This document shows positions 24,413-39,755 of a DNA stretch of 64,000 nt, piece after piece. How positions within the stretch are numbered: the stretch's first letter is position 1; the number at the start of each line of letters is the position of its first letter. The DNA is from Eubacteriales bacterium (GTDB lineage: Bacteria; Bacillota; Clostridia; Oscillospirales; CAG-382): contig JAZNWF010000035.1 of assembly GCA_045593165.1 (NCBI GenBank), forward strand, positions 10,078 through 74,077. The letters run 5' to 3'. The notes below the pieces were generated by a model. The model saw only the letters and a list, made by a program, of their open reading frames with translations, was not told where the DNA came from and did not search any database. Made by a program: the position numbers and the translations under genes.

Positions 24413-25093
24413 ATGTGCGAAAACAGCGAAAACGGATGCGCTTTGGAAAACGGAGAGGCTTATAACGGAAGCGTGACCACAAGCGTAAACGGAATATGCA
24501 TTCATTCATTGGTCATAGCAGGTCAGATAGAGGGGCATTTTGCAGCGTCACCGCAAACAAAATCGACAAAATACGAGCATTGTATACCTACGCTCGTGGC
24601 GGTAGAGGAAAACGACGAGATCGACGGTCTGTTATTGCTTTTAAACACTATCGGAGGAGATATCGAGGCAGGGCTTGCAATAGCCGAGCTTATAGCAGGT
24701 ATGACGAAGCCGACGGTTTCGCTTGTGCTCGGAGGCGGACATTCGATAGGTGTACCCTTGGCGGTATCGGCAAAAAAATCGTTTATCGTGCCGAGCGCAA
24801 CGATGACGCTTCATCCCGTGCGATTGAACGGGCTTGTAATAGGCGTCCCGCAAACCTTTGCCAACCTTGATAAAATGCAGGAAAGAATAATCGAATTCAT
24901 CGTCCGCAATTCAAGCACCGACAGCAACACGATACGCAGGCTTATGACGGCAACCGACGATATGACGACCGACATCGGAACTGTAATCGACGGACGCGAG
25001 GCGGTGGAATACGGAATAATCGACCGTGTCGGCGGCTTGGGTGATGCCGTTTCGGAATTAAAAAGAATGATAAACGAAGCAAGGACAAAATAA
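24413..25093 (+). CDS. tepA: ClpP-family protein TepA/YmfB
   Basis: IAGQIEGH, KSTKYEH, LNTIGGDIEAGLAIAE, GGGHSIGVP, LHPVR; RBS gaggtgg before ATG 24413. Confidence 0.85.
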   Translation: MCENSENGCALENGEAYNGSVTTSVNGICIHSLVIAGQIEGHFAASPQTKSTKYEHCIPTLVAVEENDEIDGLLLLLNTIGGDIEAGLAIAELIAGMTKPTVSLVLGGGHSIGVPLAVSAKKSFIVPSATMTLHPVRLNGLVIGVPQTFANLDKMQERIIEFIVRNSSTDSNTIRRLMTATDDMTTDIGTVIDGREAVEYGIIDRVGGLGDAVSELKRMINEARTK

Positions 25094-25133
25094 AAGTGCA
25101 GTTGTAGTGAGACTTCCGTATGGGAAGTCTCAC

Positions 25134-25343
25134 AGTTTTATTCGCCGCATTACATTTGGCGAGTTATATTGCTTCGCAGTTTTATTATGCTTTTTTGCCC
25201 CGCGAAAGACGCTTTCGCGGGGACTCATCGCATAGTGCTATTCGGCTACGCCGAGTTTGGCGAATAAAATAACACTGAAGCCATAGGCTTCAATACCACT
25301 GTCGCTTGCGACAATATCACTCCGACGAGGTCGGAATATAACT
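25134..25343. repeat. Nonamer/mini-hairpin array (4x AGTKNTATT + hairpin, then 4x AATAHMACT separated by hairpins)
   Basis: Nonamers at 25134, 25162, 25178, 25234; complementary nonamers at 25268, 25292, 25313, 25335. Confidence 0.85.
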
Positions 25344-25371
25344 TGAATAATATCTTCTGTTGTGTTATTAT
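25343..25371 (+). promoter_or_regulatory. sigmaA promoter carried by element copy 1
   Basis: TTGAAT-N17-TATTAT with extended TG; same position in copy 2. Confidence 0.75.
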
Positions 25372-25477
25372 AAAAAGGGTAAGGCTTAGCCCAATAAAGT
25401 ATTTGTACTTACAAATGCGATGCCGGCTCTTCTTGAACTGTTTGATAGATAAGAATTTGACTTACGAGGACGATTGT

Positions 25478-25918
25478 ATGAAAAAGACAATTATTATTTC
25501 TGCAGTTATTGTGATTGCATTATTATTGGTTGGTTTTGTTGTGTCTATCCCGATTATGAATGACCGCTCGGCAAAGAAAGTTGAAAAACAACTTGTGGAA
25601 GTTCCTCTGCCCGACAACACAGAAATGATCGAATCTCTATCCAAGGCAGGCAAGCTTGTTGGTAATGGCAACGGAATGCAGTATTTCGGTGCTATACTTA
25701 TCAAAAGCGAAAAAACACTTGATGAGTTATCCACCTACTATTCGCACAAACTTACAAATGCAGTTGTAAAAGAACAAAAATCACAGACAATTGAGTGTGT
25801 CGAACACGAAATCATTTCCTTTGATACTAACATCGCAGAAACCGACAATTACTTTATCGTTTATTTGTTTGGTAACGGAATTTCTCCTTTTTCAGATTTA
25901 GATATTCGTGGGCATTAA
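25478..25918 (+). CDS. Hypothetical exported/membrane-anchored protein (cargo of element copy 1)
   Basis: ATG at 25478 after gagga; N-terminal TM helix; visibly more AT-rich than its neighbours. Confidence 0.75.
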   Translation: MKKTIIISAVIVIALLLVGFVVSIPIMNDRSAKKVEKQLVEVPLPDNTEMIESLSKAGKLVGNGNGMQYFGAILIKSEKTLDELSTYYSHKLTNAVVKEQKSQTIECVEHEIISFDTNIAETDNYFIVYLFGNGISPFSDLDIRGH

Positions 25919-26069
25919 ATATCCATAGGCATAGAATATGTTTTGCATTGTTTTAGGCTTACCAATTCCAATTTGTTGTACAGAAAAACCCGACAACTTT
26001 TAGAGTCTGTCGGGTTTTTAATATCCTTATGAGATGTATCCTTAACAACTGCACTTTTGCTATTCGTCT

Positions 26070-27215
26070 TTAAGGCTTTTTGATGGTGTCCTTAATGCTG
26101 TCATAAATATATCCCGCATATACCTCATAGGTTTCGTCCTTCGGGTGCAAGCCGTCGGTAAATACCTCGGAATGCTCCTTGGACCAATCGAAAAGGTCTA
26201 TCGTAGGATATCCGTAATCGTTTGCGATCTGCTTAAGAAGCGGATGCGAATGCCTTACTATATTTGCAGTCCAAGCCTCTGCGCCCCATTGGTCGCCCGC
26301 AACCGCAAACAGCGACGAGGGCAGGCAGATATATATCTGGCAATCGGGGTTTGCCGCCTTGAAGGAATCGAGCAAGGCTTTTGTACTTTGGATAAATTTG
26401 TTTTCACGGTCGTTTGCCGCATTATCCCAATTTTTATAGGGCTGTGTGGGTGTGGGGTTTGCGTCGTTAGTACCGAGATTGAAAATCACGACGTCAGCCT
26501 TCAACGCCTTTGCATCGGCATATTGCTGACTCTTGCAATATGCATATTCGTCGGTGCTGACGATAGAATATCCGCTAAGACCCGCGTTAAGCACGTAGTA
26601 TTCCAAGCCGAGCATATTCTGTAAATAGTTAGGATAAGTCTTTTCGCGGTCATCGGAATTTATTCCCTGCGTAATGCTGTCGCCGACACACGCAACCTTA
26701 ATAACGTTCGCCTCGCCGCGCTTTTCGCAGTTTGCGAAAACACCGTCCTTGGATTCTTCGATCATATTGATTAGCTCCTTATAGCCTGCATAGCATCCCG
26801 TTGCATAAGACGACGCGATAACCACCGCATTTTCCTTTATGGCGATCTTATATCCTCCGAAGCCGTAATCGGACAACATATCCGCACAAGCCTCGCGGCG
26901 CGCGGTCGAGCCGAATATTATCTCGTTGCCCTTTTGCGGAACAAGGTCGGAGCGGTAATCGAGCTCGAAGCCGAAATTGCTCTTTACGTACTCGATAAAT
27001 TCAAGCGCAACGGTTTTGAACTGTGCCGATTCGGAGGTGCTTTTGTAAACCACCGTGAATTCAGAAAGATCTATTCCGTTTATAACAGGTTTTTTCGGGG
27101 GCGCCTTGGACTCCTCAACCGATTCGGTCCGGCTTTCGGCATTATCGGTTTCGGCACACGAAGCAACAGAAACAAGCATTAATGCCACAAGCAAAAAACA
27201 TAAAATTCGTTTCAT
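26070..27215 (-). CDS. SGNH/GDSL hydrolase lipoprotein
   Basis: Start MKRILC at 27215 after AGAGGT; lipobox VAS-C; VGDSITQG, NAGLSG, LGTND, DGLHP. Confidence 0.85.
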   Translation of the reverse strand: MKRILCFLLVALMLVSVASCAETDNAESRTESVEESKAPPKKPVINGIDLSEFTVVYKSTSESAQFKTVALEFIEYVKSNFGFELDYRSDLVPQKGNEIIFGSTARREACADMLSDYGFGGYKIAIKENAVVIASSYATGCYAGYKELINMIEESKDGVFANCEKRGEANVIKVACVGDSITQGINSDDREKTYPNYLQNMLGLEYYVLNAGLSGYSIVSTDEYAYCKSQQYADAKALKADVVIFNLGTNDANPTPTQPYKNWDNAANDRENKFIQSTKALLDSFKAANPDCQIYICLPSSLFAVAGDQWGAEAWTANIVRHSHPLLKQIANDYGYPTIDLFDWSKEHSEVFTDGLHPKDETYEVYAGYIYDSIKDTIKKP

Positions 27216-27228
27216 AACAATACCTCTT

Positions 27229-27373
27229 AGCCGAAGCATTGAAGCTTGAACCAGCCCGAAAGGACTGAACCGCAATGCTTTTCGTAAAATTTTAATTTAT
27301 CGTCTTTGCAATACACAGCCGAAGCATTGGAGCTTGAACCTGCCCAAAAGGACTGAAACGAAATGCTTCGGCT
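27229..27373. repeat. Two tandem ~55-nt structured repeats upstream of the GDSL gene
   Basis: agccgaagcattgRagcttgaaccWgcccRaaaggactgaaMcgMaatgctt at 27229 and 27317. Confidence 0.85.
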
Positions 27374-27379
27374 AGAGTA

Positions 27380-27405
27380 AAGCGCACGAAAGGCTTCGTG
27401 CGCTT
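27380..27405 (-). terminator. Hairpin, probable terminator of the dockerin gene
   Basis: aagcgcacgaa-aggc-ttcgtgcgctt. Confidence 0.6.
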
Positions 27406-27429
27406 ATGCTTTTTATTGTGATTTCGGCA

Positions 27430-27972
27430 TTATACCCAACCGGGAGTCCAGCCGGATTCCTCTGCTTCGGGATCGTACGGTTCGCAGGTATATTTATTGT
27501 TAATATTATACGTTCCCATATATGCGCGCTTGATCTTAATATAGTTCATCGCGCTGAGCTTCTTACCGTTGGCAACGTCAACGTCTGCCGCCTCAAGCTG
27601 AAGATTGGTGAGCGTCACGCCTGTTCCGAGATAAGCACGCTTTACCAAAATATAATCGTACGGCTTGATAAGTCCGTCGCCGTCAATATCGCCCTTTACA
27701 ACGGCAGTATACTGTATACTGTTTATCTTTACTATATATCCCGTTCCGATTATAACGCTGTCACTGACCTTTTTACCTTCAGTATCAAAAACAGAAATAA
27801 TTGCGTTATAATACGCATTTTTGAGATTCTTTACAGACGTATCAGCGGGAACACCATAAATTTTTCCGTTTTTCAGCTCCGGTCTGAAGCTAACGGGGTC
27901 TGCGGATGCAAACAGTGCGCAAACGCTTAACAAAAGCGTGCACGTCAATAATAGCGCAAGTATCTTTCTCAT
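27430..27972 (-). CDS. Small secreted dockerin (type I repeat) protein
   Basis: Signal peptide; KGDIDGDGLIKPYDYILVKR...AADVD...MNYIKIKR. Confidence 0.8.
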   Translation of the reverse strand: MRKILALLLTCTLLLSVCALFASADPVSFRPELKNGKIYGVPADTSVKNLKNAYYNAIISVFDTEGKKVSDSVIIGTGYIVKINSIQYTAVVKGDIDGDGLIKPYDYILVKRAYLGTGVTLTNLQLEAADVDVANGKKLSAMNYIKIKRAYMGTYNINNKYTCEPYDPEAEESGWTPGWV

Positions 27973-27990
27973 AATTTTCCTCCGAGCTTA

Positions 27991-28827
27991 TTATACTTCT
28001 ACCCAAACACCGGGGGTCTGTAATGCCTTGTTTCCTGCCTCTATAATGCCCATGACCGAAACGGTTTCCGCGTGATCGGCAAAGGTTTCGCCGGTTTTGA
28101 AGAAGGTGCAAAGCTTGTTTATAAAGTTTCCGAAATAATCACTCATCTGAGGGATTCTGTAGGTAGAGCCGTTTTCGTAGCTTACGATCATTTCAAAATC
28201 GACGCCGGTCCAATCGTAATGGCTCATAACCGCTCTTCTGCCACCCTTGAATTCGATAACCATCGATTCGTAAGGTCCGCTTCCGATAGCCATAAGACGC
28301 TCGACCTCGCTGCCCATAAGCACCACGATAGGCTCTATCTGGTGTATAGCATAGGTATCGAACTTGCCGGGTCCACGCGAATTTATAAAGCATATACCAT
28401 CGCGGGGAACGTCGTTAAGCTCGGTAGAAAAGCGGAGCGCAGAGGTAGAGAAGAAGGGCGTATTGTTTGCTTCGCCTATTTCAACTATCTGCTTTGCGAT
28501 ATCCTTTGTAAGCGCAAAGGTTTTATCAACGTAAACCCGCTTTCCGCTTGCAAGCGGCTCGCGGCAGAGATCCAGATGTCGTTCGGGATTATCGGGCGAG
28601 AGCACGATAATGCAATCACTTTTTTCAACAACCTCGGAAATAGTGTCGCAGCGTTCTACGTCAAACTGCTTGCACCATTCGTCCGTGGTCATTCCGCCCG
28701 GCTTATCCATTTCGGCATATGCATAGGCAACCTTGAATTCATCACCGAACTGCTCTGCGATGAATTTGGGGTAATTGAGTGCGTGCCACTCGTCAAGATA
28801 ATAATCGATAAATCCAATTTTTATCAT
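27991..28827 (-). CDS. Gfo/Idh/MocA family oxidoreductase
   Basis: IKIGFI, H...C...LASGKRVYVDKTFA, STSALRF, YAIH. Confidence 0.75.
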   Translation of the reverse strand: MIKIGFIDYYLDEWHALNYPKFIAEQFGDEFKVAYAYAEMDKPGGMTTDEWCKQFDVERCDTISEVVEKSDCIIVLSPDNPERHLDLCREPLASGKRVYVDKTFALTKDIAKQIVEIGEANNTPFFSTSALRFSTELNDVPRDGICFINSRGPGKFDTYAIHQIEPIVVLMGSEVERLMAIGSGPYESMVIEFKGGRRAVMSHYDWTGVDFEMIVSYENGSTYRIPQMSDYFGNFINKLCTFFKTGETFADHAETVSVMGIIEAGNKALQTPGVWVEV

Positions 28828-28855
28828 AGCATATCTCCTGTGATTATTTCATATG

Positions 28856-29317
28856 TCAAAGCAAAAACGAAAGTATTCCCAAAACGCCGTACGCGATAAG
28901 CGTTACGATAACGCCTGCTACAAGCACGCCCAGCGCGATAGGCGGAAACGCTCTTTTCAAATCAAGATTCAAGGTGATCGCAATCAACGCACCCGTCCAA
29001 GCGCCCGTTCCCGGAAGCGGCACGGCAACAAACGCCATAAGCCCCCAGAAAACCGTTTTATTCATTTTTGCGACCTTGCTTTCGCCGATTTCCAATATCT
29101 TTCGGAAAGGCCTTCCGAATTTTTCAAACGAAGCAAAATATCTTAATACCTTGCCTCCGAATAATACAAGAAACGGAACGGGAAGAAGGTTTCCCACTAC
29201 TGCCAACAGAAACGTCAGCCACATATTCATATCGAGCCCTACGCCCAAGGGAATCGCTCCGCGGAGCTCGACGATCGGCAACAAACTCATGCCGAAGACG
29301 TATAACCAATCCAACAT
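28856..29317 (-). CDS. Small multidrug export (COG2426-like) membrane protein
   Basis: PIVELRGAIP, GNLLPVP, FVAVPLPGTGAWTG. Confidence 0.85.
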   Translation of the reverse strand: MLDWLYVFGMSLLPIVELRGAIPLGVGLDMNMWLTFLLAVVGNLLPVPFLVLFGGKVLRYFASFEKFGRPFRKILEIGESKVAKMNKTVFWGLMAFVAVPLPGTGAWTGALIAITLNLDLKRAFPPIALGVLVAGVIVTLIAYGVLGILSFLL

Positions 29318-29330
29318 TATATTCCCTTAA

Positions 29331-30779
29331 TTATTTAGGCAGATATGCCGAAATATCGATAGTCTTCATACAATGACGCTTTATGATGATGTAATCGATA
29401 ACAACAGGCTCATCATCGCCGGAAATACAAGCCGCCTCGTATGCATCGCCGGTAAGCGTATAGGTCTTCATAAGGAAGCGCTTCAACATAATGTAGTCGT
29501 AAAGATTCACTTCGCCGTTGCAGTCAACGTCGCCCATAACGAGAATCTTGATGCCTGCTCCGCAGTCAACCGTCATTCCGGTAGTAACGAAGCCGCTTGT
29601 AAGCTCGTTGCCGTCCTTATCGAGCACGGTGACATCATTTTCAAACATCGCCTTGAAATCGGCTACGTCAAGCTTGTTGGTGTAAACCTTGATGACAGAA
29701 TTCGCTTCGTCATAGGTAAGCAACGCATCGGACTTGACTATGGGAGCAGCGCTTGTGATGGTGAATCCCGCATTTGTAAGAGCGGTTCCCGTTGCAACAG
29801 CGCCGGTTGCTTCGATATTTACGTTATAAAGAGTAACGGTCGAGCCAACGTATGCCGCCTGCTTGAACGCCGCAAGATCGGCGCTTCTGTTACCGTTCAC
29901 GCCAACAATGTACGAGCCTGCAGGGATAACCACCGCGGATTTATCGCTTGCGGGTCTGCCGATAACGGTATCAACGTAGGTGATCACGTTATTGGCATCA
30001 ACGATCATAATTCCGAAATAGTTCATATCCTGCTGATTGTTGGTGATCTCGATATAGCTTCTGATATAATCGCCGACGGTGATCTCCTCTTCTGCGTAAT
30101 AAATTACGTTTTCAGCCGCATGGATATATCCTGCATAGGTAAGCGCAAACGCATCCTCGGGAAGAGTGGTAAGGCTTTCGGGCTGAAGCGCATAGGAAAC
30201 GACAACGTCCTCGACTGCAACCGTTGCATTCAAGGCAAGATCCTTATCGTATGCCGTGAAATCGGAAACGGTAAATACTATATCATCCACCTTTACGCCT
30301 TCCTTTACGGTAAAGGGTATGGTGATAACGAGATCGTCGTCTGCGGTAAGAAGGTTCTTTGCGGAATATTCGGCAAAGGCAAGATCGTAAACACCGTTTT
30401 CCTCGTCAAGCTTTCCGATTGCTTCCCAAGCATCGGGAGCCGAGGTCATAAGAGCCGCAAAGCTCATCTTATCGCCATCGGAATCTTCAACGGCAAAAAC
30501 ATTAGGGGTAACCTTTTCGGTATCGTAGCAGAGGCAAAGACAAACGCTGGAGATACCGTTGCCTTCCTCGAGAACGATATCACGCACTGATAACACCACG
30601 TTGATAACGCTGCCGGGGTTGTAATTATCGGTCGATGCATCTGTGTTCACCGAGAAGAACGGCGACGATGCGAGATAAGTGTTTGCATAAATGGGTTCTG
30701 TTGTTTCAGCCGCGATCACTGCCGCGCCTGCCGAAAACAGCATCGAAAGTGCCATGAATACAGCAAGAAGCTTTTTCAT
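29331..30779 (-). CDS. Secreted protein with a cohesin-like domain and a C-terminal dockerin
   Basis: Signal peptide; PGSVINVVLSV...LCYDTEKV...ITIPFTVK; MGDVDCNGEVNLYDYIMLKR...IDYIIIKR. Confidence 0.72.
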   Translation of the reverse strand: MKKLLAVFMALSMLFSAGAAVIAAETTEPIYANTYLASSPFFSVNTDASTDNYNPGSVINVVLSVRDIVLEEGNGISSVCLCLCYDTEKVTPNVFAVEDSDGDKMSFAALMTSAPDAWEAIGKLDEENGVYDLAFAEYSAKNLLTADDDLVITIPFTVKEGVKVDDIVFTVSDFTAYDKDLALNATVAVEDVVVSYALQPESLTTLPEDAFALTYAGYIHAAENVIYYAEEEITVGDYIRSYIEITNNQQDMNYFGIMIVDANNVITYVDTVIGRPASDKSAVVIPAGSYIVGVNGNRSADLAAFKQAAYVGSTVTLYNVNIEATGAVATGTALTNAGFTITSAAPIVKSDALLTYDEANSVIKVYTNKLDVADFKAMFENDVTVLDKDGNELTSGFVTTGMTVDCGAGIKILVMGDVDCNGEVNLYDYIMLKRFLMKTYTLTGDAYEAACISGDDEPVVIDYIIIKRHCMKTIDISAYLPK

Positions 30780-30956
30780 AAGTATTTCCTTCCGTTTTTT
30801 ATTTTAGAATAGCCTGATATAGATTTTATCAAATATCTATTTAAAGGTCAATAGACTGCAATAAAAAAATAATTGGTTTTTTATTGTATTTCTTAAAATT
30901 ATATAGTATAATGATAATGAATAAATTTACTTACATTATATAAGGCGCGGTTTTAT

Positions 30957-31829
30957 ATGGAAAATTTAACGTTTGTCCTTAATGAAAATATTGACCTTGC
31001 ACCCTTTTGCTCGATGAAGGCAAGCGGCAACGCAAGATACCTCGTCCGACCCGAAAATGAATCCGAGCTTGTTTCCGCAATACGCTTTTTCAAGGAAAAC
31101 GGCATCCGGTACATCGTTGTCGGCAACTGCTCGAACCTTATCTTCCCCGACGGCTGCTTTGACGGCGGCGTTATAGTGACCGACAGGGTGAAGGGTACAG
31201 AATGCGAAAACGGGCTCATTACCGTTTCCTGCGGTGAAACGCTTTCTACGCTTGCCACCGTTGCCTGCAACGAAAGCATCACGGGACTTGAATTCTGCTA
31301 CGGTATCCCCGGCACCGTCGGCGGCGGCGTATTTATGAACGCGGGCGCATACAGCGGCGACATTTCGCAGGTTTTCGTAAGCGGCCGCTTTCTTACCGAA
31401 GGGCTTGAAATCATCACGCTCACCTCGGCAGAAATGGAGTTCGGATACCGCAAAAGCATAATGAACCGCGAAAATATCATCCTCCTTTCCGCAACGTTCT
31501 GCGGTCAGGCCGGCAACAAGGAAGACATCCGTGCGAAAATGGACGATCTTATGTCGCGCAGAAAGGCAAGCCAGCCGCTTAACTACCCCTCCTGCGGAAG
31601 CGCGTTCAAGCGTCCCGAGGGATATTATGCAGGCGCGCTTATCGAGCAATGCGGACTCAAGGGCGCGTCCATCGGAGGAGCTCAGGTTTCGGAAAAGCAC
31701 GCGGGATTTATAATAAACACGGGAAACGCCACGGCAACCGACGTTATCGATCTTTTAAAATACGTTTCCGACACGGTGTTTGAAAAAACGGGTGTAAGAT
31801 TAGAGCCCGAAATACGTATAATCAGATAA
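30957..31829 (+). CDS. murB: UDP-N-acetylenolpyruvoylglucosamine reductase
   Basis: GNCSN, GLEF..GIPGTVGG..MNAGAY, FGYRKS, QPL..PSCGSAFKRP, VSEKHAGF, LEPE. Confidence 0.96.
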   Translation: MENLTFVLNENIDLAPFCSMKASGNARYLVRPENESELVSAIRFFKENGIRYIVVGNCSNLIFPDGCFDGGVIVTDRVKGTECENGLITVSCGETLSTLATVACNESITGLEFCYGIPGTVGGGVFMNAGAYSGDISQVFVSGRFLTEGLEIITLTSAEMEFGYRKSIMNRENIILLSATFCGQAGNKEDIRAKMDDLMSRRKASQPLNYPSCGSAFKRPEGYYAGALIEQCGLKGASIGGAQVSEKHAGFIINTGNATATDVIDLLKYVSDTVFEKTGVRLEPEIRIIR

Positions 31830-31840
31830 AGGATATAAAA

Positions 31841-32521
31841 ATGTCATTTACATCCGATATAAAGCAGCAGCTGGAATCGATACATCAAAAGAAGGATTGC
31901 TGCCGCGAAAATATAGAAAACGGCAGACAGCTCGGCTCTTTTTCGGAGCATTGTGATAAGGACAGCGGCTGTTTTCTGCGGGGCGTGTTCCTGAAATGCG
32001 GTCACGTAAGCGAGCCGGGACGCAATTTCATGCTTGATTTTACACTGCCGAACGATGAAACGGCGGATCATATTGCCGATATTCTCGATTCCGCGGGACT
32101 GACGCCGAAGCGCACCGTAAGAAAAGGCAAGCCCGTGCTTTATTACAAGGCAAGCGAAAGCATAGAGGACGTGCTCGCGTTCATAGGCGGAACAAAAGCC
32201 GCATTGGATATAATAAACGCCAAGGTAATGAGCGACGTTCGCAACGCCGCAAACCGCATCTGCAACGCCGAAACGGCAAACCTCGACCGAACGGCAAGGG
32301 CGGCGGCGGAGCAATGCGAGGCCATAAATATAATCCGGAAGCACGGTGCGATGCATAACCTTTCTCCCGAGCTTCGCGAATGCGCAGAGCTTCGCCTTGC
32401 AAACCCCGATATGAGTCTTACACAGCTTCGCGAGCAGCTTCGCGAGCCGGTAAGTAAATCGGGACTCAACCACAGGTTCAAAAAGCTTATCGAAATAGCG
32501 GAAATGCTCGAAAACAGCTGA
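31841..32521 (+). CDS. whiA: DNA-binding protein WhiA (short form)
   Basis: FLRGVFL..G..S.P, NR.CNAETANL, LRL.NP..SL..L, SKSGLNHR. Confidence 0.88.
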   Translation: MSFTSDIKQQLESIHQKKDCCRENIENGRQLGSFSEHCDKDSGCFLRGVFLKCGHVSEPGRNFMLDFTLPNDETADHIADILDSAGLTPKRTVRKGKPVLYYKASESIEDVLAFIGGTKAALDIINAKVMSDVRNAANRICNAETANLDRTARAAAEQCEAINIIRKHGAMHNLSPELRECAELRLANPDMSLTQLREQLREPVSKSGLNHRFKKLIEIAEMLENS

Positions 32522-32571
32522 AGCCGTTTTGTATCAAGAACGTTTAAAGGAACGCATTATAAAGGTATAAT

Positions 32572-35500
32572 ATGGGATTTGTTCATCTTCATCTCCATAC
32601 CGAATACAGCCTGCTTGACGGCGAATGCCGTATAAGCACCATTCCCGACGCGGTTTTGTCGGGCGGAATGAACGCCGCCGCAATAACCGACCACGGCGTT
32701 ATGTACGGCGCGGTGGATTTTTACAAGGCGTGCGTTTCCAAGGGCGTAAAGCCGATAATCGGCTGTGAGGTGTACGTTGCACCTCGGGCTATGGACCAAA
32801 AGGACAGGCTTTTGGATTCGGATTACTCCCACCTCGTTTTATTGGCAAAAAACAGCATCGGCTACAAAAATCTTATGGCGATAGTATCAAAGGCGTTCAC
32901 CGTGGGATTTTATCAGAAGCCGAGAACCGATATCGACACTCTTACCAAATATTCCGAGGGCTTGATCGCGCTTTCGGGCTGTATCTCGGGAAGCATTCCC
33001 AAGGCGATACTCGCCAACGACTTATCTCTTGCGAGAGAGCGCATCATCGTGTTCGACCGCATATTCGGAAGAAATAATTTTTACCTCGAGCTTCAACGCC
33101 ACGGCATAAGCGGACAAGAGGACGTCAACCGTGCGCTGATAAATTTTTCGCGCGAGCTGAACATCCCTTTAGTTGCTACGAACGACGCGCATTATACCTC
33201 GCGCGAGGATGCACCGATACAAAAGCTTCTTTCGGCGATCGCGACCGGAAACACCATTGACAGCGTTGGCTTCGGTATGGACGGAAGCGAGCATTATATA
33301 AAATCCGCAAGCGAAATGGAAATTCTCTTCCGTGACGTTCCCGACGCGTGCGAAAACACGGTCAAAATCGCGGAAATGTGTAATTTTGAATTTGAATTTG
33401 ACAAATTACACCTGCCCGCGTTCAAGCCGCCTGTTCCCTACAATTCCGAAGGCTATCTTCGCAAGCTTTGCGATGATGGGCTTGACAGGTTAAGCAAAGC
33501 CGACCGATTGAACGGCGACGCTTCTATATACCGCGAAAGATTGGATCACGAGCTTAAAATAGTTCACGATATGGGCTTTGACGATTATTTCCTTATCGTT
33601 TGGGATTTCGTTAACTACGCAAGAAAAAACGGCATTCCCGTCGGCGCGGGAAGAGGAAGCGCGGTAGGAAGTCTTTGCACCTACCTGCTCGGCATAACGC
33701 AGGTCGACCCCATTAAGTACAATCTTCTTTTTGAGCGCTTTTTGAACCCCGAAAGAGTAAGCATGCCCGATATCGATATAGATTTCAGCGACGAGCGTCG
33801 AGGCGAGGTCATCGAATACGTTTCGGCAAAATACGGTCAATCGCACGTCGCACAGATAATAACATTCGGTACGCTTGCCTGCCGTCAGGCAGTAAGAGAT
33901 GCAGGACGCGCGATCGGCATGAGCTACGCCTCGGTAGATGAAATAGCAAAGCTTATACCCCGCCATTACGACGTAACGCTTGAGGCGGCATTAAAGGAAA
34001 GCCCCGAGCTGAAAAGCCGTTACGACAGCGTGCCCGCCGCAAAAAGACTTATAGATTACGCAATAAAGCTCGAGGGCAGACCCCGCAACACGAGCACGCA
34101 CGCATCGGGCGTGGTAATTACCGACGAGCCGCTTACTGACTATCTTCCCCTTGCCGTTAACGACAGCACCGTCGTTACGCAGTTCACTATGAATACGGTT
34201 GCGGACCTGGGTCTTTTGAAAATGGACTTCCTCGGTCTGCGCTTCCTTTCGATAATACAGGACACGGAAAAGCAGATAAGGAAAACTATTCCCGATTTTT
34301 CGGCGGAATTACTGCCGTTTGACGACAATGCAACCTTTGAAATGCTTTCCGAGGGTCAGGCGATAGGAATATTCCAGCTCGAAAGCGAGGGCATGCGCGC
34401 TCTGCTTTCAAAATTGAAGCCGCGCGATTTAGAGGATATTATTTCGGTAATATCGCTTTACCGACCCGGTCCCGCTTTATCTATAGATACGTTTTTGAAA
34501 AACCGTGCCGACCCCGAAAGTATAGTATACGACGACCCACGATTGAAGGATATATTGGGCTCTACCTGCGGCGTTCTGCTTTATCAGGAGCAGGTTATGC
34601 AGGTCTGCAGAAGCCTTGCGGGATATTCCTACGGCAGAGCTGACCTCGTTCGCCGTGCCATGGCGAAGAAGAAGCCCGAGGTAATGGCGAAGGAAAAGGG
34701 TGTTTTCCTCGACGGTGCAACCAAAAACGGCGTACAGACCGAAAAGGCGGAAAAAATATTCGACCAAATGAACGAGTTTGCAAAATACGCGTTCAACAAA
34801 AGCCACGCCGCGGCTTATGCCGTTATCGCATACCGTACAGCCTGGCTCAAATGCCACTATCCGCGCGAATATATGTCTTCCCTGCTCAATACCGTTATGG
34901 GCTACAACGAAAAGGTAGGAGAATATATCGCCGACTGTGCGAGAATGGGTATAAAAATACTTCCGCCCGACGTAAACGAAAGCTTTGGCAGCTTTTCGGT
35001 AAGCGGAAGCAATTTGCGGTTCGGTCTTGCCGCAATAAAAAACGTAGGCGAATTATTCGCGAGCCGCGTGATAAACGAGCGCGAAAAGCACAAATTCGAA
35101 AGTCTTGAGGATTTTATAACCCGTTGCTCGCCCTTTGGAAGCAGTAAGGCGTTTGAATCGCTTATAATCGCAGGCGCACTCGATAGCTTCGGCGTAAGAA
35201 GAAGCCATATGCTTGCAGGGCTGTCGCAAGCGCTTGAAACCGTTTCGAAGGACAGAAACCGCGTACCCGAGGGACAAATGAGTCTTTTCGGCGGCGACGA
35301 CCCGATATCCTCATCGGTCTTCGAGTTTCCGAAATCTACCCTGCCCGAGTTAATGCAGAGCGAAATGCTTTCGGGTGAAAAGGAAATGACGGGGCTTTAT
35401 TTCAGCGGACACCCGCTCGATAATTACAGCGATACGATAAAAAGCATCGGCGCTTTGGATGCCGACGAGCTGCGCAAGGGATTGGAAAACGGCAGCATAA

Positions 35501-36039
35501 AAAAATCCCATTCAATAAAATTTGTCGGTCTTGTAACAAAAAAACGCTCGAAAATCACGAAAAAGAATGATATAATGGCATTCGTAACCGCCGAGGATGA
35601 AAAGGGCGAGATAGAAATTATCGTGTTCCCGAACGCCTATACCGAATACGGCAGTATTATTTCGGAAAACAGCGTACTCGTATTCACAGGCAACCCCGAA
35701 ATAAAGGAAGCCTACGGCGACGAGGGCGCGGACAGCATTTCGATATTGCTGAAATCGGTATGCACGCCCGAGGAAGCGGCTGAAAAGGCTTATAAAGCCA
35801 ACAGCGCGGCGATAAGATCCGACAAATCACTATATATCAAGGTCACGTCCGAAAATTCGCACCGATTGGACGATGCGATCGCGCTTGCATCCAAATCGGG
35901 CGGAAGCGCGCGTATACTTGTATACTTTGAATCAGAGAAGCGGCTTTGCGCCGCAAAGGGCAAAAGCGCTACCCTATCGGAGCGTCTGCTTATGCAGCTT
36001 CGCGAAATCATGGGAGAAAGCAATATTGCCGTAAAGTAA
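32572..36039 (+). CDS. dnaE: DNA polymerase III alpha subunit
   Basis: FVHLHLHTEYSLLDG, GRGSAVGS, FERFLNPER.SMPDIDIDF, YAFNKSHA. Confidence 0.97.
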   Translation: MGFVHLHLHTEYSLLDGECRISTIPDAVLSGGMNAAAITDHGVMYGAVDFYKACVSKGVKPIIGCEVYVAPRAMDQKDRLLDSDYSHLVLLAKNSIGYKNLMAIVSKAFTVGFYQKPRTDIDTLTKYSEGLIALSGCISGSIPKAILANDLSLARERIIVFDRIFGRNNFYLELQRHGISGQEDVNRALINFSRELNIPLVATNDAHYTSREDAPIQKLLSAIATGNTIDSVGFGMDGSEHYIKSASEMEILFRDVPDACENTVKIAEMCNFEFEFDKLHLPAFKPPVPYNSEGYLRKLCDDGLDRLSKADRLNGDASIYRERLDHELKIVHDMGFDDYFLIVWDFVNYARKNGIPVGAGRGSAVGSLCTYLLGITQVDPIKYNLLFERFLNPERVSMPDIDIDFSDERRGEVIEYVSAKYGQSHVAQIITFGTLACRQAVRDAGRAIGMSYASVDEIAKLIPRHYDVTLEAALKESPELKSRYDSVPAAKRLIDYAIKLEGRPRNTSTHASGVVITDEPLTDYLPLAVNDSTVVTQFTMNTVADLGLLKMDFLGLRFLSIIQDTEKQIRKTIPDFSAELLPFDDNATFEMLSEGQAIGIFQLESEGMRALLSKLKPRDLEDIISVISLYRPGPALSIDTFLKNRADPESIVYDDPRLKDILGSTCGVLLYQEQVMQVCRSLAGYSYGRADLVRRAMAKKKPEVMAKEKGVFLDGATKNGVQTEKAEKIFDQMNEFAKYAFNKSHAAAYAVIAYRTAWLKCHYPREYMSSLLNTVMGYNEKVGEYIADCARMGIKILPPDVNESFGSFSVSGSNLRFGLAAIKNVGELFASRVINEREKHKFESLEDFITRCSPFGSSKAFESLIIAGALDSFGVRRSHMLAGLSQALETVSKDRNRVPEGQMSLFGGDDPISSSVFEFPKSTLPELMQSEMLSGEKEMTGLYFSGHPLDNYSDTIKSIGALDADELRKGLENGSIKKSHSIKFVGLVTKKRSKITKKNDIMAFVTAEDEKGEIEIIVFPNAYTEYGSIISENSVLVFTGNPEIKEAYGDEGADSISILLKSVCTPEEAAEKAYKANSAAIRSDKSLYIKVTSENSHRLDDAIALASKSGGSARILVYFESEKRLCAAKGKSATLSERLLMQLREIMGESNIAVK

Positions 36040-36058
36040 CGAAAGGAGTTTTCAGAAT

Positions 36059-38986
36059 ATGCAGGACAACAGCAACAATATTCCCGAAAACGAAGAAAAC
36101 GAAAGCCGTTTCGAGCCCGAAAGCACAAACGAAACGGAAATAAACAACGGCGCCGAAAGCACAGAGGAAGCCTCTTCTTCGAGATTCGACGATCCGAGCC
36201 TGTTTGCAAACGTGTCGGATAACGATGCCGATATGGCATATATAGAGGACGAAAGAGCAACCACGCGCGATTTCGAGCCGGCAACACCCTGCACGGAATC
36301 CGACGGAAAAACGCGTTGCTTCGACACGCTTGAAAGCACAAGTGCCGCCGAAAAGGAAGAAAAGACAAAAAAATCCATTCCTTTCGGCAAATCTAAAACC
36401 GCACGCGCGGCAAAATCCACCGCCTCGGGTATCGGATTCGTGATAACCAAGGCATTGGGATATTTGTTAAATATCCTGCTTACCGTTTTGGTCGTAGGAC
36501 TTATAACGGGTACTGTCGTTGCGCTCGCCTTCGTTATTTATATTAACAACTACGTCGATATGGAATTCAACGAGCTCGAAGACCTCAAATTCGATTCCGC
36601 ACAATCGACGATGATGTATTATGTTGATGAGGCAGGCAACGAGGTGTTGCTCGAGGAGGATACGCTCCACAGCAGTGAAAACAGACTTTGGGCAGACTAC
36701 AAGGACATTCCGCAACAGCTCATCGACGCGTATATTGCAGTTGAAGACCAGCGTTTTCTTGAGCACGACGGCGTAGACTTCACTCGTACCGCGTCCGCAA
36801 TATACAACTTCTTTATCCCCACAAGCTCAAGCTACGGCGGCGGCTCGACCATAACACAGCAGCTGATAAAAAACGTAACCGGCGAAAATGAGGCTACTAT
36901 TCAGCGTAAGGTGCAGGAAATATTCCGCGCATTCGACGTTGAAAAGAAATATACAAAAGAAGAGATACTCGAAATGTATCTCAACACAATATACCTTTCG
37001 CACAATTCGTACGGTGTACGCGTTGCGGCCGATACCTACTTCGGCAAGGAGCTTTCCGACCTGACGCTTACCGAATGTGCGGCTATCGCCTCGATAGGCA
37101 AATGGCCCACGCACTACGACCCGATATCCAACCCGCAGAACAATCTTACCCGACGCAATCTTGTATTGAAGCTGATGCTCGAGCAGGGCAAGATAACTCA
37201 GGAGGAATTCGATCAGGCATACGATACGCCGCTTGTTCTTGCTACGGGTGACGAATCCGAAACAACCTACACCGAAAACGTCCATTCCTATTATATAGAT
37301 GCAGTAATGGATGACGTTATAGCCGACCTTATGTCCACCTACGGATATACCGAGGTCGAAGCATCACGTATGCTCTTCTCGGGCGGTCTTGAAATAGTGA
37401 CCTGCCTTGACCCCGGAATTCAAAGCTGTGTCGAAAAGGTATATACCGATTCGAGCTATTGGCCCGAAACCGAGGGCATGCAGGCGCAATCGGCAATCTG
37501 TATACTCGACCCCAACAACGGCGACCTTTTGGCGATCGTCGGCGGTCTTGGTGAAAAGCGCGAAAGCAGAGGGCTGAACCGCGCTACCCATTCCAAGCGT
37601 CAGTGCGGCTCTTCCATAAAGCCGATATCCATATATGCGCTCGCGCTTGAGGAGGGATATATTACGGGTGCTTCGGGCGTTGACGACGTTCCTCCCGTAT
37701 ATTATGAAAGCTCCAATTCCTATTGGCCCAAGAACTCGGGCGGCAGATATCGCGGTATGGTTTCTCTTGACTATGCGATACAGGCATCGCTCAACACGAT
37801 CGTTGTAGACCTCTGCAACGAAATGGGCGTGGATAGGGTATTCAACAATATGGTCGACTACGGCTATACCACGCTTATAAGCAACAAAAAGCTTGCAAAC
37901 GGAAGCGTGGTTTCGGATATTAACGTAGCACCTCTCGCACTCGGCGGTCTTACCTACGGTGTAACCGTACGCGAGCACACTCAGGCATATGCGACCTTTG
38001 CAAACGGCGGTGTTTCGGTTAAGGCACGCACCTATTCGGTAGTCCGCGACAGCTCGGGCAAGACCATTCTCGACAACACTCCGCAGCAGAAGGCAAAATA
38101 CAGCGAGGACACCGCTGCAATAATGACCGAGCTCCTCACCCACGTTGTTACGGGCGCAAGCGGTACTGCTCACGGCTCGATAAAATTCCAGCGCAATTAC
38201 GGCGTTGAGGTTGCGGGCAAAACCGGTACGACCAACGACAAAAAGGACGTTTACTTCTCGGGCTATACTCCCGATTTCGTTGCTTGCTGTTGGTACGGCT
38301 ACGATAACAACAAGGTCATCACCACCTCGGGCAACTGCGCCGCAAAGCTTTGGAACAGCGTATTCAATGAAATATATGCATACCTTGCAGAAAACGAAAT
38401 TCCCTACACCAAAACCTTTGAGGTTCCCACCTCGGTTCAGGAAATCGAGGTTTGTATGATATCGGGTAAGCTTCCCACTGAAGCCTGCCGACTTGACCTT
38501 TGCACAGGGGCAGACGGAAGCTGTGTAGGCACGGTAACCGTCCGCAAGGCAGATATCCCGACAGAATACTGTGATATTCACATTATGGCAAAGCAGTGCG
38601 TTGCAAGCGGTGCACTCTGCTTCGACGGACACAACAGCTGTCCCGACACGGTGGACGTATCGTTGAGAAGAATAACCACCTCGGACCGTGCGCTTTATGC
38701 AAACGTAAGAGTAACCGACGCGGAATTTCTTTATATGGATATCCCCGAGGGTTATGTTTTCCCGACCGATCCTATGATGCCGTTCTTCCAGAACGCGCTT
38801 CCCGAAGGTATAACGTTCGGCTTCACAAGCGGCTCGACCCCTCCTGTTAACCGCGTTTGTCAGACACATATCATCCCCACGCTCGGTCCTTCGTTCCCGA
38901 CAGATCCTAATCAACCCGTTGACCCAAATCAGCCGACCGACCCCGCGTTACCCGTAGAGCCCGATGACCCGACGGTAACACCTTAA
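36059..38986 (+). CDS. Class A penicillin-binding protein (PBP1A family)
   Basis: EDQRF.EH.G, GGSTITQQL, RK.QE; SxxK (SSIK), SLN, KTGT; Cys-rich and Pro-rich C-terminus. Confidence 0.93.
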   Translation: MQDNSNNIPENEENESRFEPESTNETEINNGAESTEEASSSRFDDPSLFANVSDNDADMAYIEDERATTRDFEPATPCTESDGKTRCFDTLESTSAAEKEEKTKKSIPFGKSKTARAAKSTASGIGFVITKALGYLLNILLTVLVVGLITGTVVALAFVIYINNYVDMEFNELEDLKFDSAQSTMMYYVDEAGNEVLLEEDTLHSSENRLWADYKDIPQQLIDAYIAVEDQRFLEHDGVDFTRTASAIYNFFIPTSSSYGGGSTITQQLIKNVTGENEATIQRKVQEIFRAFDVEKKYTKEEILEMYLNTIYLSHNSYGVRVAADTYFGKELSDLTLTECAAIASIGKWPTHYDPISNPQNNLTRRNLVLKLMLEQGKITQEEFDQAYDTPLVLATGDESETTYTENVHSYYIDAVMDDVIADLMSTYGYTEVEASRMLFSGGLEIVTCLDPGIQSCVEKVYTDSSYWPETEGMQAQSAICILDPNNGDLLAIVGGLGEKRESRGLNRATHSKRQCGSSIKPISIYALALEEGYITGASGVDDVPPVYYESSNSYWPKNSGGRYRGMVSLDYAIQASLNTIVVDLCNEMGVDRVFNNMVDYGYTTLISNKKLANGSVVSDINVAPLALGGLTYGVTVREHTQAYATFANGGVSVKARTYSVVRDSSGKTILDNTPQQKAKYSEDTAAIMTELLTHVVTGASGTAHGSIKFQRNYGVEVAGKTGTTNDKKDVYFSGYTPDFVACCWYGYDNNKVITTSGNCAAKLWNSVFNEIYAYLAENEIPYTKTFEVPTSVQEIEVCMISGKLPTEACRLDLCTGADGSCVGTVTVRKADIPTEYCDIHIMAKQCVASGALCFDGHNSCPDTVDVSLRRITTSDRALYANVRVTDAEFLYMDIPEGYVFPTDPMMPFFQNALPEGITFGFTSGSTPPVNRVCQTHIIPTLGPSFPTDPNQPVDPNQPTDPALPVEPDDPTVTP

Positions 38987-39033
38987 AACAAAAAAGGAAC
39001 TGTTTGCGAGACTTCCCAAAACGGAAGTCTCGC

Positions 39034-39208
39034 AGTTTTATTCGCCAAAAACATTTGGCGAGTGATATTGCTTCGCAGTTTTATTATGCTTCGCATAGTG
39101 GTATTCGGCTACGCCGAGTTTGGCGAATAAAATAACACTGAAACCTTAAGGTTTCAATATCACTATTGCTTTGCAATAATATCACTCCGACGAAGTCGGA
39201 ATAAAACT
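39034..39208. repeat. Nonamer/mini-hairpin array, copy 2
   Basis: Nonamers at 39034, 39061, 39077, 39097; complementary nonamers at 39131, 39156, 39178, 39200. Confidence 0.85.
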
Positions 39209-39236
39209 TGAATAATATAAACTGTTATGATAAAAT
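39208..39236 (+). promoter_or_regulatory. sigmaA promoter carried by element copy 2
   Basis: TTGAAT-N17-TAAAAT with extended TG. Confidence 0.75.
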
Positions 39237-39331
39237 GGGTTTGGGCATAACCCAATAACGCTGTTGTGAAGACAAATGCGATGTTGGTACTAAAACAGCT
39301 TGATAAACAAGAATTTGATGGAGATGTAAAT

Positions 39332-39658
39332 ATGAAAATCGGTATTACGGATTATGAAGATTACTTGTATGACCATTACAAGAGCCACGGTATTGACAGC
39401 AGTTTGTTTATGAAATTGGTTGAAGAAGTAGGCGAAGTGGCTGAGGTTCTAAACAAACGGGACGGAAGAAAGGCTTCTGATAGTGAAGATCTGAAATCGC
39501 AGTTAGCCAATGAGCTGGCGGATGTTATTCATTATGCTTTCGCGATTGCATCATTAAATCAAATCGATTTGAATGATGTTATTTTAGAGAAGGACAAAAT
39601 AGCCTCCATAAAGTACCATCACGAAAGAAATCTTGAGCAGTTTATGGAAGCAAGATAA
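39332..39658 (+). CDS. MazG-like nucleotide pyrophosphohydrolase (cargo of element copy 2)
   Basis: ATG at 39332 after ggag; KLVEEVGEVAE...ELADV all-alpha NTP-PPase motif; AT-rich. Confidence 0.85.
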   Translation: MKIGITDYEDYLYDHYKSHGIDSSLFMKLVEEVGEVAEVLNKRDGRKASDSEDLKSQLANELADVIHYAFAIASLNQIDLNDVILEKDKIASIKYHHERNLEQFMEAR

Positions 39659-39755
39659 ACTATATTTTTCTAACAGAAAAACCCGACGGACTTTGTAAAT
39701 CCGTCGGGTTTTTAATATACTCATGAGAACCTCTCGCAAGCAGTTCCTTTTCTTT

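Follow-up and report, generated by a model that had tools for sequence, protein, structure and literature searches.

The 64,000-nucleotide stretch analysed here (the window; GenBank assembly GCA_045593165.1, contig JAZNWF010000035.1, positions 10,078 to 74,077) belongs to a metagenome-assembled genome (MAG) of a gut Clostridia bacterium (G000; 1.71 Mb, 73.6% complete) and contains two copies, A (25107-26041) and B (39006-39731, window coordinates), of one hairpin-rich, gene-carrying unit. On balance, we read A and B as non-autonomous mobile DNA elements of gut Clostridia that land in the loops of transcription terminators. A first-pass annotation, made from the letters of the window alone, had proposed a non-autonomous mobile expression platform; the further copies, empty sites and swapped cargoes reported below support it. 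Genomes are labelled with G-numbers, contigs of G000 with C-numbers and compared loci with L-numbers. The genus survey covered 60 other species plus G000 (61 genomes), and all genomes compared were MAGs.

By alignment, copies A and B are alike over a left chassis of about 350 nucleotides (nt; 73% identity in 356 nt) and a right end of about 56 nt (84% identity), and their open reading frames (ORFs) do not align to each other. The common order is a terminator-like left hairpin, a hairpin/nonamer array, a promoter, a leader, an ORF, a right hairpin of the A-tract/T-tract type and a terminal motif (..CCTTATGAGA..). The first-pass annotation had described one ordered chassis at both loci, and all of its features were recovered at about the same coordinates (Table 1). 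As it had also reported, there is no transposase or recombinase inside (no transposase-size ORF in A or B), the ends are not terminal inverted repeats, and the cargoes are unrelated: A encodes a protein of 146 amino acids (aa) without a Pfam family and B a MazG-like enzyme (PF03819).

Aligned across copies, the conserved sequence starts with TTGCGAGAC and ends with ..TTATGAGAAGTAGCC or ..GAGAAGTAGCC, neither terminus (GCGAGAC.. or ..AGTAGCC) being an inverted repeat of the other. The GAGA that had been noticed at both ends is present, but it is part of the conserved termini at each end and therefore not a target duplication. Just outside the termini the flanks are mutually complementary and bounded by A and T runs; they read AAAAGTGCAGTTGT and ACAACTGCACTTTT in A, GGAACTG and CAGTTCC in B, and are quite different sequences around other copies. 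Over 32 junction pairs, which were chosen by regular expressions and include a few miscalled right ends, the mean length of the longest complementary run is 9.9 nt, compared with 5.6 nt in shuffles, a control that is weak at a 6-nt threshold because 48% of shuffles reach it. From this complementarity and the A/T-run boundaries, every copy is predicted to lie inside a split host bidirectional terminator, likewise C7 of G000 (AAAAGCGTTGGGC ... GCCCAACGCTTTTT), a class II copy as defined below. The right end of the element is often ..CC followed by TTT.

Evidence of movement comes from empty sites and from elements shared between species. Downstream of pbp1A, G012, G018, G060 and G051 have a plain intergenic terminator of 37-50 nt, and the G060 hairpin (GGAACGCAGaatCTGCGTTCC) is the intact ortholog of the terminator split by B in G000. 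In G002 a terminator (..cttacTTATtgtaa.., ..ggctcttacTTATtgtaaaagcc..) is intact and without element; in G064 the same hairpin holds an array element of about 330 bp exactly between TT and AT, with no duplication. Cargo-bearing units have moved between species. The 1.1-kb elements of loci L114 and L182, with a 226-aa cargo, are 98.6% identical over 1105/1112 bp, the full element, both of their 400-bp flanks lack a match and the enclosing terminators differ. The same element is 98% identical in three species (G077, G078 and G079) in which a flank gene is 69-71% identical, and the C17 copy of G000 is 97% identical to two contig-end copies in G058, with neighbouring housekeeping genes at 76%. The empty/filled pair and the 98%-identical element amid dissimilar flanks argue for a mobile chassis. 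As a separate observation, the pbp1A-ygiQ interval of most relatives (loci L025-L033 were compared) includes a VOC/glyoxalase-like gene that is missing from G000, where element B is found instead (window 38987-39755).

The expectation that many more copies would be found on searching the genome and its relatives was borne out. The left module of B has 19 matches in G000, where nonamer clustering yields 13 arrays, in all of which forward nonamers precede reverse ones. The module occurs patchily in 34 of the 60 other species of the genus (at least 11 matches in nine species, none in 26) and, elsewhere in the order, in 5 of 16 other families. At least 119 stretches of species-representative genomes contain an 18-mer from the leader core, nearly all of them from MAGs of uncultured Clostridia, Oscillospiraceae, Acutalibacteraceae or Ruminococcus, with record titles naming goat, sheep, deer, cattle, yak and other hosts; a leader profile matched 112 of 121 fetched 18-mer loci, and about a dozen chance hits fell in other phyla. 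Contigs from four animal gut or feces runs, with depths summed, covered the array 20-100 times as deeply as the flanks. Judged by these matches, the chassis family is widespread in gut Clostridia. The left module had no match in plasmid and phage record collections. In IMG/VR the leader 18-mer had two matches, both by chance in coding DNA, and an array 19-mer had four, three of them true arrays, of which one stands beside a tmRNA gene with a serine recombinase, one at a host/phage border and one upstream of terminase genes. On the phage-like IMG/VR contig L348 a complete double array (1530-1900) lies just upstream of the terminase small and large subunit genes.

A putative RNA core shared by 26 aligned copies consists of P1 (UUGGGC/GCCCAA), P2 (GCAUUUGUA/UACAAAUGC) and GCGAUGCYGGUUCU, and matched no family in Rfam scans. 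Its 3' part defines class I, with a hairpin P4 (19 loci), a short form running straight into the terminator (7 loci), class II, ending ..UUCUCCGAUAAGAACAAC (40 loci), and class III, ending ..UUCGCUAACGAC (12 loci); many copies end in a terminator without a gene. The double array lies upstream of the core in 52 of the 59 loci with at least 300 nt of upstream sequence, and its last nonamer adjoins the -35 box. The structure of the core is plausible: 82% of cells are paired, with two compensatory changes and many G-U pairs in P2, a result no better than shuffles. Promoter-like site counts in the A and B regions are not above shuffles either. Class II copies, including C7 of G000, have a bidirectional terminator-like hairpin in place of the class I promoter, and no sigma-A promoter was seen in them. 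The element is presumably transcribed.

In class I the ORF lies between inverted repeats (..CAGTTCGATAAATAAGAATTTG and CAAATTCCAATTTATCGAACAG..). All 17 aligned junctions have the layout ..GATAAATAAGAATTTG, then a ribosome-binding site (RBS) and ORF, then CAAATTCCAATTTATCGAAC.., and the stop codon often abuts the right arm. Four cargo-less copies (L070, L058, L132 and L213) have a closed P4 hairpin, for example TTCGATAAA-ttaggg-TTTATCGAA in L070 and GATAAATTTAAATTTATC in L132. A Pfam scan of 20 cargo proteins returned unrelated families: MazG, HTH_3, DUF4279, a CPT-like kinase, three GNATs, NUDIX, FMN reductase, SAM methyltransferase, DUF3795, a pyridoxal-type kinase and BspA-LRR, with one weak SprT-like match, one weak acyltransferase match and five proteins without a family. 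In L006 (G000:C17:90447-91420) a 169-aa ORF in inverted orientation comes after a cargo-less element, and after the ORF a further right-end motif (..CCCTTATGAGAATCAGGC), an arrangement that looks like tandem or rearranged right ends.

The hairpin/nonamer array corresponds, judging by its homologues, to a catalogued motif. Rfam scans of A and B matched only Gut-1 (RF01706; gathering score, 50 bits), at 24.7 bits in A and 43.1 bits in B (E, 1e-5), both below the gathering score. Homologous arrays exceed it (L002, 58.6 bits; L014, 55.7 bits; L008, 50.7 bits), as do arrays of other MAGs (L111, 59.4 and 56.5 bits; L141, 56.8 and 52.0 bits). Most arrays give two Gut-1 matches, the first half on the element strand and the second on the opposite strand, so that the array amounts to two convergent Gut-1 units. 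The nonamer spacers are hairpins: an end-anchored stem of at least 4 bp is present in 59% of 59 forward-half spacers and 78% of 50 reverse-half spacers, against 0.5-0.7% of shuffles. In the divergent subfamily of G064, AGTTATGAT and ATCATAAC replace AGTGATATT and AATATCACT, so that the two half-arrays change together.

In 17 aligned class I arrays with their left hairpins, 97.7% of cells are paired, and two-sided changes occur in 9 of 47 pairs, against 2.0 ± 0.9 in shuffled alignments (0 of 500 shuffles as high); the left hairpin h0 alone has four compensatory pairs over the 17 copies. The compensatory stem changes claimed in the first-pass annotation therefore stand for the array and left hairpin but not for the leader. 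Over 87 arrays, 456/464 and 780/794 stem pairs are Watson-Crick, with only 1 and 6 G-T pairs, a composition that RNA seldom shows and that suits palindromic DNA, or a constraint acting on the two strands.

Array-only copies without an RNA core also exist. In G000, three such copies come directly after terminators, one of a tmRNA gene and two of tRNA genes (C27:8980-9557, C17:107833-108080 and C15:2640-2874). A tyrosine recombinase lies 2 kb from the C27 array and an XRE-TPR gene follows it; a 585-aa membrane protein follows the C15 array, and the idea that XRE regulators always flank array-only copies was rejected. The 36-nt mini-hairpin nested in A also occurs in the C17 copy and in metagenome contigs. 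It belongs to a small palindromic repeat family (CCCC..AAAA..TTTT..GGGGACCCC / GGGGTCCCC type) with about a dozen copies in G000, at sites that include window 25193-25228, C17:22314-22350, C17:22237, C17:92335 and C59:282; some copies are nested in array hairpin loops, and L070 has tandem copies. At C59:6277-6315 a left-type hairpin (GCGAGATTTCC..GGAAGTCTCGC, then a T run) stands alone; it is terminator-like, lacks an array and may be a remnant.

In the mechanism that we propose, the unit from the left hairpin (TTGCGAGAC..) to the right motif (..TTATGAGAAGTAGCC) would insert, with no duplication of the target, into the T-rich loop of an intrinsic terminator of the host. The broken terminator would be replaced by the element's own hairpins, the left hairpin with AGTTTTATT serving the upstream gene and the right AAAACCCGAC..GTCGGGTTTT hairpin serving both the element's transcript and the convergent gene. 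Of the three inner parts, the palindromic double array (Gut-1; short hairpins joined by nonamers) most likely acts as DNA, the second would be the promoter or, in another class, the terminator-like hairpin, and the third the conserved small-RNA core. One subclass would carry its single RBS-plus-ORF cargo in the P4 loop, between RNA core and terminator, and the chassis would thereby express whatever sits there. A structure-reading, DNA-level enzyme would recognise the structured ends in trans, probably by way of a single-stranded DNA intermediate; we favour such an enzyme over the four other routes weighed below.

Searches for the moving enzyme covered copies, cargo and host genomes. No copy contains a transposase, and the proposal to look for a copy encoding a HUH/Y1, IS110 or tyrosine recombinase yielded none, the 20 cargo proteins including neither transposase nor recombinase. 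G000 has no Y1_Tnp or IS110 match and one tyrosine recombinase. Among the 61 genomes, Y1_Tnp (PF01797; 21 of 60 species) shows no link to the element, being absent from high-copy G043, G044, G046, G017, G052 and G063 and present in element-free G011, G002, G074, G072 and G075. A RAYT-like protein (174 aa; 14 of 60 species) does not correlate with the element either, being missing from G010 (98% complete) and from G008 but encoded in element-free G042, G049, G062 and G002. In five genomes (G000, G010, G008, G044 and G012), RVT_1 had no match, Y2_Tnp (PF04986), the transposase type of IS91/ISCR rolling-circle elements, had none with control genomes also lacking a match, and Resolvase matched in two. 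In these scans Y1, RAYT-like, reverse transcriptase and serine recombinase genes do not track the element, nor do Y2 genes in the scan with silent controls, and the moving enzyme is not a co-resident canonical IS200 TnpA or RAYT. Movement in trans, as the first-pass annotation had it, is only presumed here because no enzyme emerged from these searches.

These searches bear most directly on a derivative of the insertion sequence (IS) family IS200/IS605 (a palindrome-associated transposable element, PATE) or a REPIN-like relative of repetitive extragenic palindromic (REP) sequences, with a Y1 HUH transposase acting on single-stranded DNA at hairpin ends of the lagging-strand template. We consider this route unlikely. 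Y1 and RAYT-like genes are present in the genus, and the element resembles PATEs, which are IS200/IS605-derived, in having no target duplication or terminal inverted repeats and in having subterminal hairpins at both ends. The T-rich single-stranded loop as target and the frequent ..CC before TTT also fit, and an array of pure Watson-Crick palindromes, arranged as two mirrored half-arrays, could function whichever way it is replicated. Against it stand the lack of a cognate Y1 (PF01797 not tracking the element and without a match in the 73.6%-complete G000) and of RAYT co-occurrence, the IS200 ends of G008, which are unrelated to the element, and the sequence difference between left and right hairpins. 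The RAYT-like genes, moreover, are flanked by their own GTAG-tagged REPs (GTAGGGGCG-type) unlike the array, whose nonamers (AGTKNTATT) carry no GTAG/CGTC tag. In L220, L223 and L224 (G058, G051 and G069), RAYT-like HUH genes flanked by GTAGGGGCG..CGCCC REP hairpins make up a separate REP/RAYT system in the genus.

Less likely still are cassettes moved by a tyrosine recombinase that reads folded or palindromic sites (integron-like, Xer-like, or of phage or integrative and conjugative element type), with P4 as the site of cargo exchange. The cargoes are single promoterless RBS-plus-ORF units of the integron-cassette type (GNAT, NUDIX, MazG, CPT, small membrane proteins), the empty P4 of L070 and L132 resembles an arm-spacer-arm site, arrays adjoin tmRNA and tRNA genes and prophage borders, and every genome tested has tyrosine recombinases. 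PF00589 also matches in element-free G012 and G021, however, and no integrase lies beside the copies examined. The repeats flanking the cargo are inverted, not direct, so that simple integration or excision between them is not expected. The conserved sequence after the ORFs is the P4 arm plus terminator and no attC-like repeat was seen in the loci read, attC models not having been run.

It is improbable that the unit is not mobile at all, being instead a family of small-RNA genes under a common regulatory region, with the array providing operator sites, that multiplied by duplication and travelled within larger horizontal transfers. The array is linked to the RNA core in most loci, as given above, and abuts the -35 box, XRE-type regulators recur as cargo or neighbours (C4, C62, C27, C17e, L044, L060, L146, L165 and L199), and the G000 copies have diverged. 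Identity nevertheless stops exactly at the termini with unrelated flanks beyond, a different split terminator surrounds each copy, an empty/filled terminator pair exists, array-only copies lack the RNA, and the nonamer spacing of 16-36 nt is not phased with the DNA helix. An RNA-based route, in which the unit is transcribed with the 3' end of the upstream gene and reverse-transcribed into terminators, much as class C group II introns are, is highly improbable: intrinsic terminators are the target, Gut-1 has been proposed as an RNA (PMC2864571), P2 has many G-U pairs and class II copies lack a sigma-A promoter, but RVT_1 is missing from the five genomes, Rfam scans gave no group II intron match, array stems are almost without G-T pairs and the left hairpin is itself terminator-like.

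Several points weigh against reading A and B as mobile elements that land in terminator loops, or limit that reading. No enzyme was found inside the copies or tracking the element, and because all the genomes are MAGs, enzymes borne on plasmids or phages may be absent from the data. The circular junctions suggested as a check were not seen: at site B, contigs of the four gut/feces runs contain no excised or circular form and no joint that skips the element. Metagenome contigs bridge both B junctions in X1, X2 and X3, and no empty B site with pbp1A or ygiQ flanks occurs among at least 120 generic terminators. Empty sites in relatives, which the first-pass annotation had asked for, exist for B (the G060 ortholog) and in the G002/G064 pair, but none was seen for A, the C17 copy or the L114 site, synteny breaking at those points. 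Neither A nor B yielded an empty site at the level of strains. The one exact empty/filled pair comes from the divergent subfamily with AGTTATGAT nonamers. Copies within G000 are 70-87% alike, which leaves recent activity in G000 unsupported. Location in loops could partly reflect selection, because these intergenic regions (37-50 nt) consist almost wholly of terminator. As for the capture of single genes, unrelated genes do sit singly at one docking point, but many members are cargo-less and capture is thus a property of one subclass, not of the whole family. Finally, the hairpin/linker array appears to be the already described Gut-1 motif.

Insertion into a loop is seen at three levels, with whole units in host terminators, cargoes in P4 and the 36-nt mini-hairpin in the loops of the array. 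The pattern could stem from the mechanism, or simply mark the sites that tolerate insertion. A bolder proposal, which we regard as possible but doubtful, is that the elements form an unrecognised class of mobile expression cassette inserting into hairpin loops at all three levels, and that either an enzyme belonging to none of the known transposase families or some universal function of the host moves them, with Gut-1 as a DNA-level cis-acting site and not an RNA gene.

Table 1. Features of copies A and B and their flanks in the window
Copy	Feature	Positions	Strand	Remarks
A	5' half of split host bidirectional terminator (AAAAGTGCAGTTGT)	25092-25105	+	Directly after tepA-like stop codon; complementary to 26045-26058, longest run 14 nt
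A	Left terminal hairpin h0 (GTGAGACTTCC..GGAAGTCTCAC), then AGTTTTATT	25107-25133	+	Terminator-like, 11 pairs
A	Gut-1-type double array	25134-25343		Hairpins and AGTKNTATT nonamers in first half, AATANCACT nonamers in mirror half; cluster FFFRRRR
A	Nested 36-nt mini-hairpin (GCCCCGCGAAAG..CTTTCGCGGGGAC), A only	25193-25228		In loop of array hairpin h3; gap in B (alignments)
A	Sigma-A-type promoter TTGAAT-17-TATTAT, extended TG	25343-25371	+	Position kept in class I copies
A	Conserved RNA core/leader (putative)	25378-25477	+	P1, P2 (..TTTGTAcTTACAAATGC), GATGCCGG; P4 5' arm 25438-25459; start inferred from -10 box
A	Cargo, 146-aa protein, N-terminal hydrophobic segment, no Pfam family	25478-25918	+	Membrane or exported protein
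A	Right module	25962-26041	+	P4 3' arm 25962-25983; hairpin AAAAACCCGACA..TGTCGGGTTTTT 25984-26019; terminal motif ..CCTTATGAGATGTATCC
A	3' half of split host terminator (ACAACTGCACTTTT)	26045-26058	+	Complementary to 5' half
B	5' half of split host terminator (AAAAAAGGAACTG)	38990-39002	+	After pbp1A-like stop codon; complementary to 39741-39752
B	Left terminal hairpin h0	39006-39033 (39004-39035 when scored as terminator)	+	Terminator-like
B	Gut-1-type double array	39034-39208		Nonamer cluster FFFFRRRR
B	Promoter TTGAAT-17-TAAAAT, extended TG	39208-39236	+	Sigma-A-type pattern
B	Conserved RNA core/leader (putative)	39243-39331	+	P4 5' arm 39296-39317; start inferred
B	Cargo, 108-aa MazG-like nucleotide pyrophosphohydrolase	39332-39658	+	PF03819, E 4.1e-8, 33.8 bits (cut-off 22)
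B	Right module	39677-39731	+	Hairpin AAAAACCCGACGGA..TCCGTCGGGTTTTT 39677-39713; terminal motif ..ACTCATGAGAACC; P4 3' arm degenerate
B	TCTCGCAAG (left terminus, inverted copy), then host terminator 3' half (CAGTTCCTTTTC)	39732-39752	+	39741-39752 complementary to 5' half

Upstream of the tepA-like gene that precedes copy A, the window contains an ORF of 2351 aa (17242-24297, minus strand).

Among known systems, mobile insertion cassettes and transporter ISs are transposase-less, carry passenger genes and are moved in trans; mobile insertion cassettes have IS-type terminal inverted repeats and target duplications, whereas the element family has neither. It is likewise not a miniature inverted-repeat transposable element (MITE), since the termini show no terminal inverted repeats and the G002/G064 pair no target duplication. 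Integron gene cassettes and pdif modules swap single small accessory ORFs on a common platform at folded or palindromic sites; the element instead brings its own promoter and terminator, is dispersed and not arrayed, and has no attC, attI or IntI. The earlier view that it fits neither a standard MITE nor an attC integron thus holds, no attC-like repeat or integron integrase having been seen. Class C group II introns home to intrinsic terminators and insert after the hairpin, whereas the element has no intron domains or reverse transcriptase and inserts inside the loop. REPs and REPINs with their RAYTs (PMC3116915, PMC3337134 and PMC3733652), and IS200/IS605 PATEs, are likewise extragenic, hairpin-based and non-autonomous, without terminal inverted repeats or target duplications and often at gene ends; the element is much larger (350-1500 bp) and has a promoter, an RNA and cargo, with no GTAG tag and no Y1 or RAYT co-occurrence. 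Putative mobile promoters place the same upstream region before unrelated genes (PMC3575422); here a whole bounded unit with termini and insertion sites is seen, not a promoter alone. Gut-1 itself was listed by Weinberg et al. (2010; PMC2864571) among candidate noncoding RNAs, with human gut metagenomes as its only known source. Homologues of the arrays in A and B match that motif (sister copies and other MAGs, 50.7-59.4 bits), A and B themselves scoring below the gathering score, but here two convergent units lie inside a mobile unit linked to a second RNA, the stems look like DNA palindromes and the hosts are animal-gut Clostridia MAGs. No description of the composite element was found in the literature on Gut-1 or, among the matches listed, in that on terminator-hairpin non-autonomous cargo elements.

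The elements place Gut-1, catalogued in 2010 as an orphan motif and without an assigned function, in a genomic context and add an uncatalogued small-RNA core found in more than 100 genomes of uncultured gut Clostridia. They offer a route by which single accessory genes, among them GNAT, NUDIX, MazG, CPT-like kinase, methyltransferase and regulator genes, pass between species already fitted with a promoter and terminators. An element that enters terminator loops and then supplies termination itself should do its host almost no harm and be easily missed in annotation, and its moving enzyme, once found, could prove to use a new chemistry of DNA insertion, aimed at a simple structural target.

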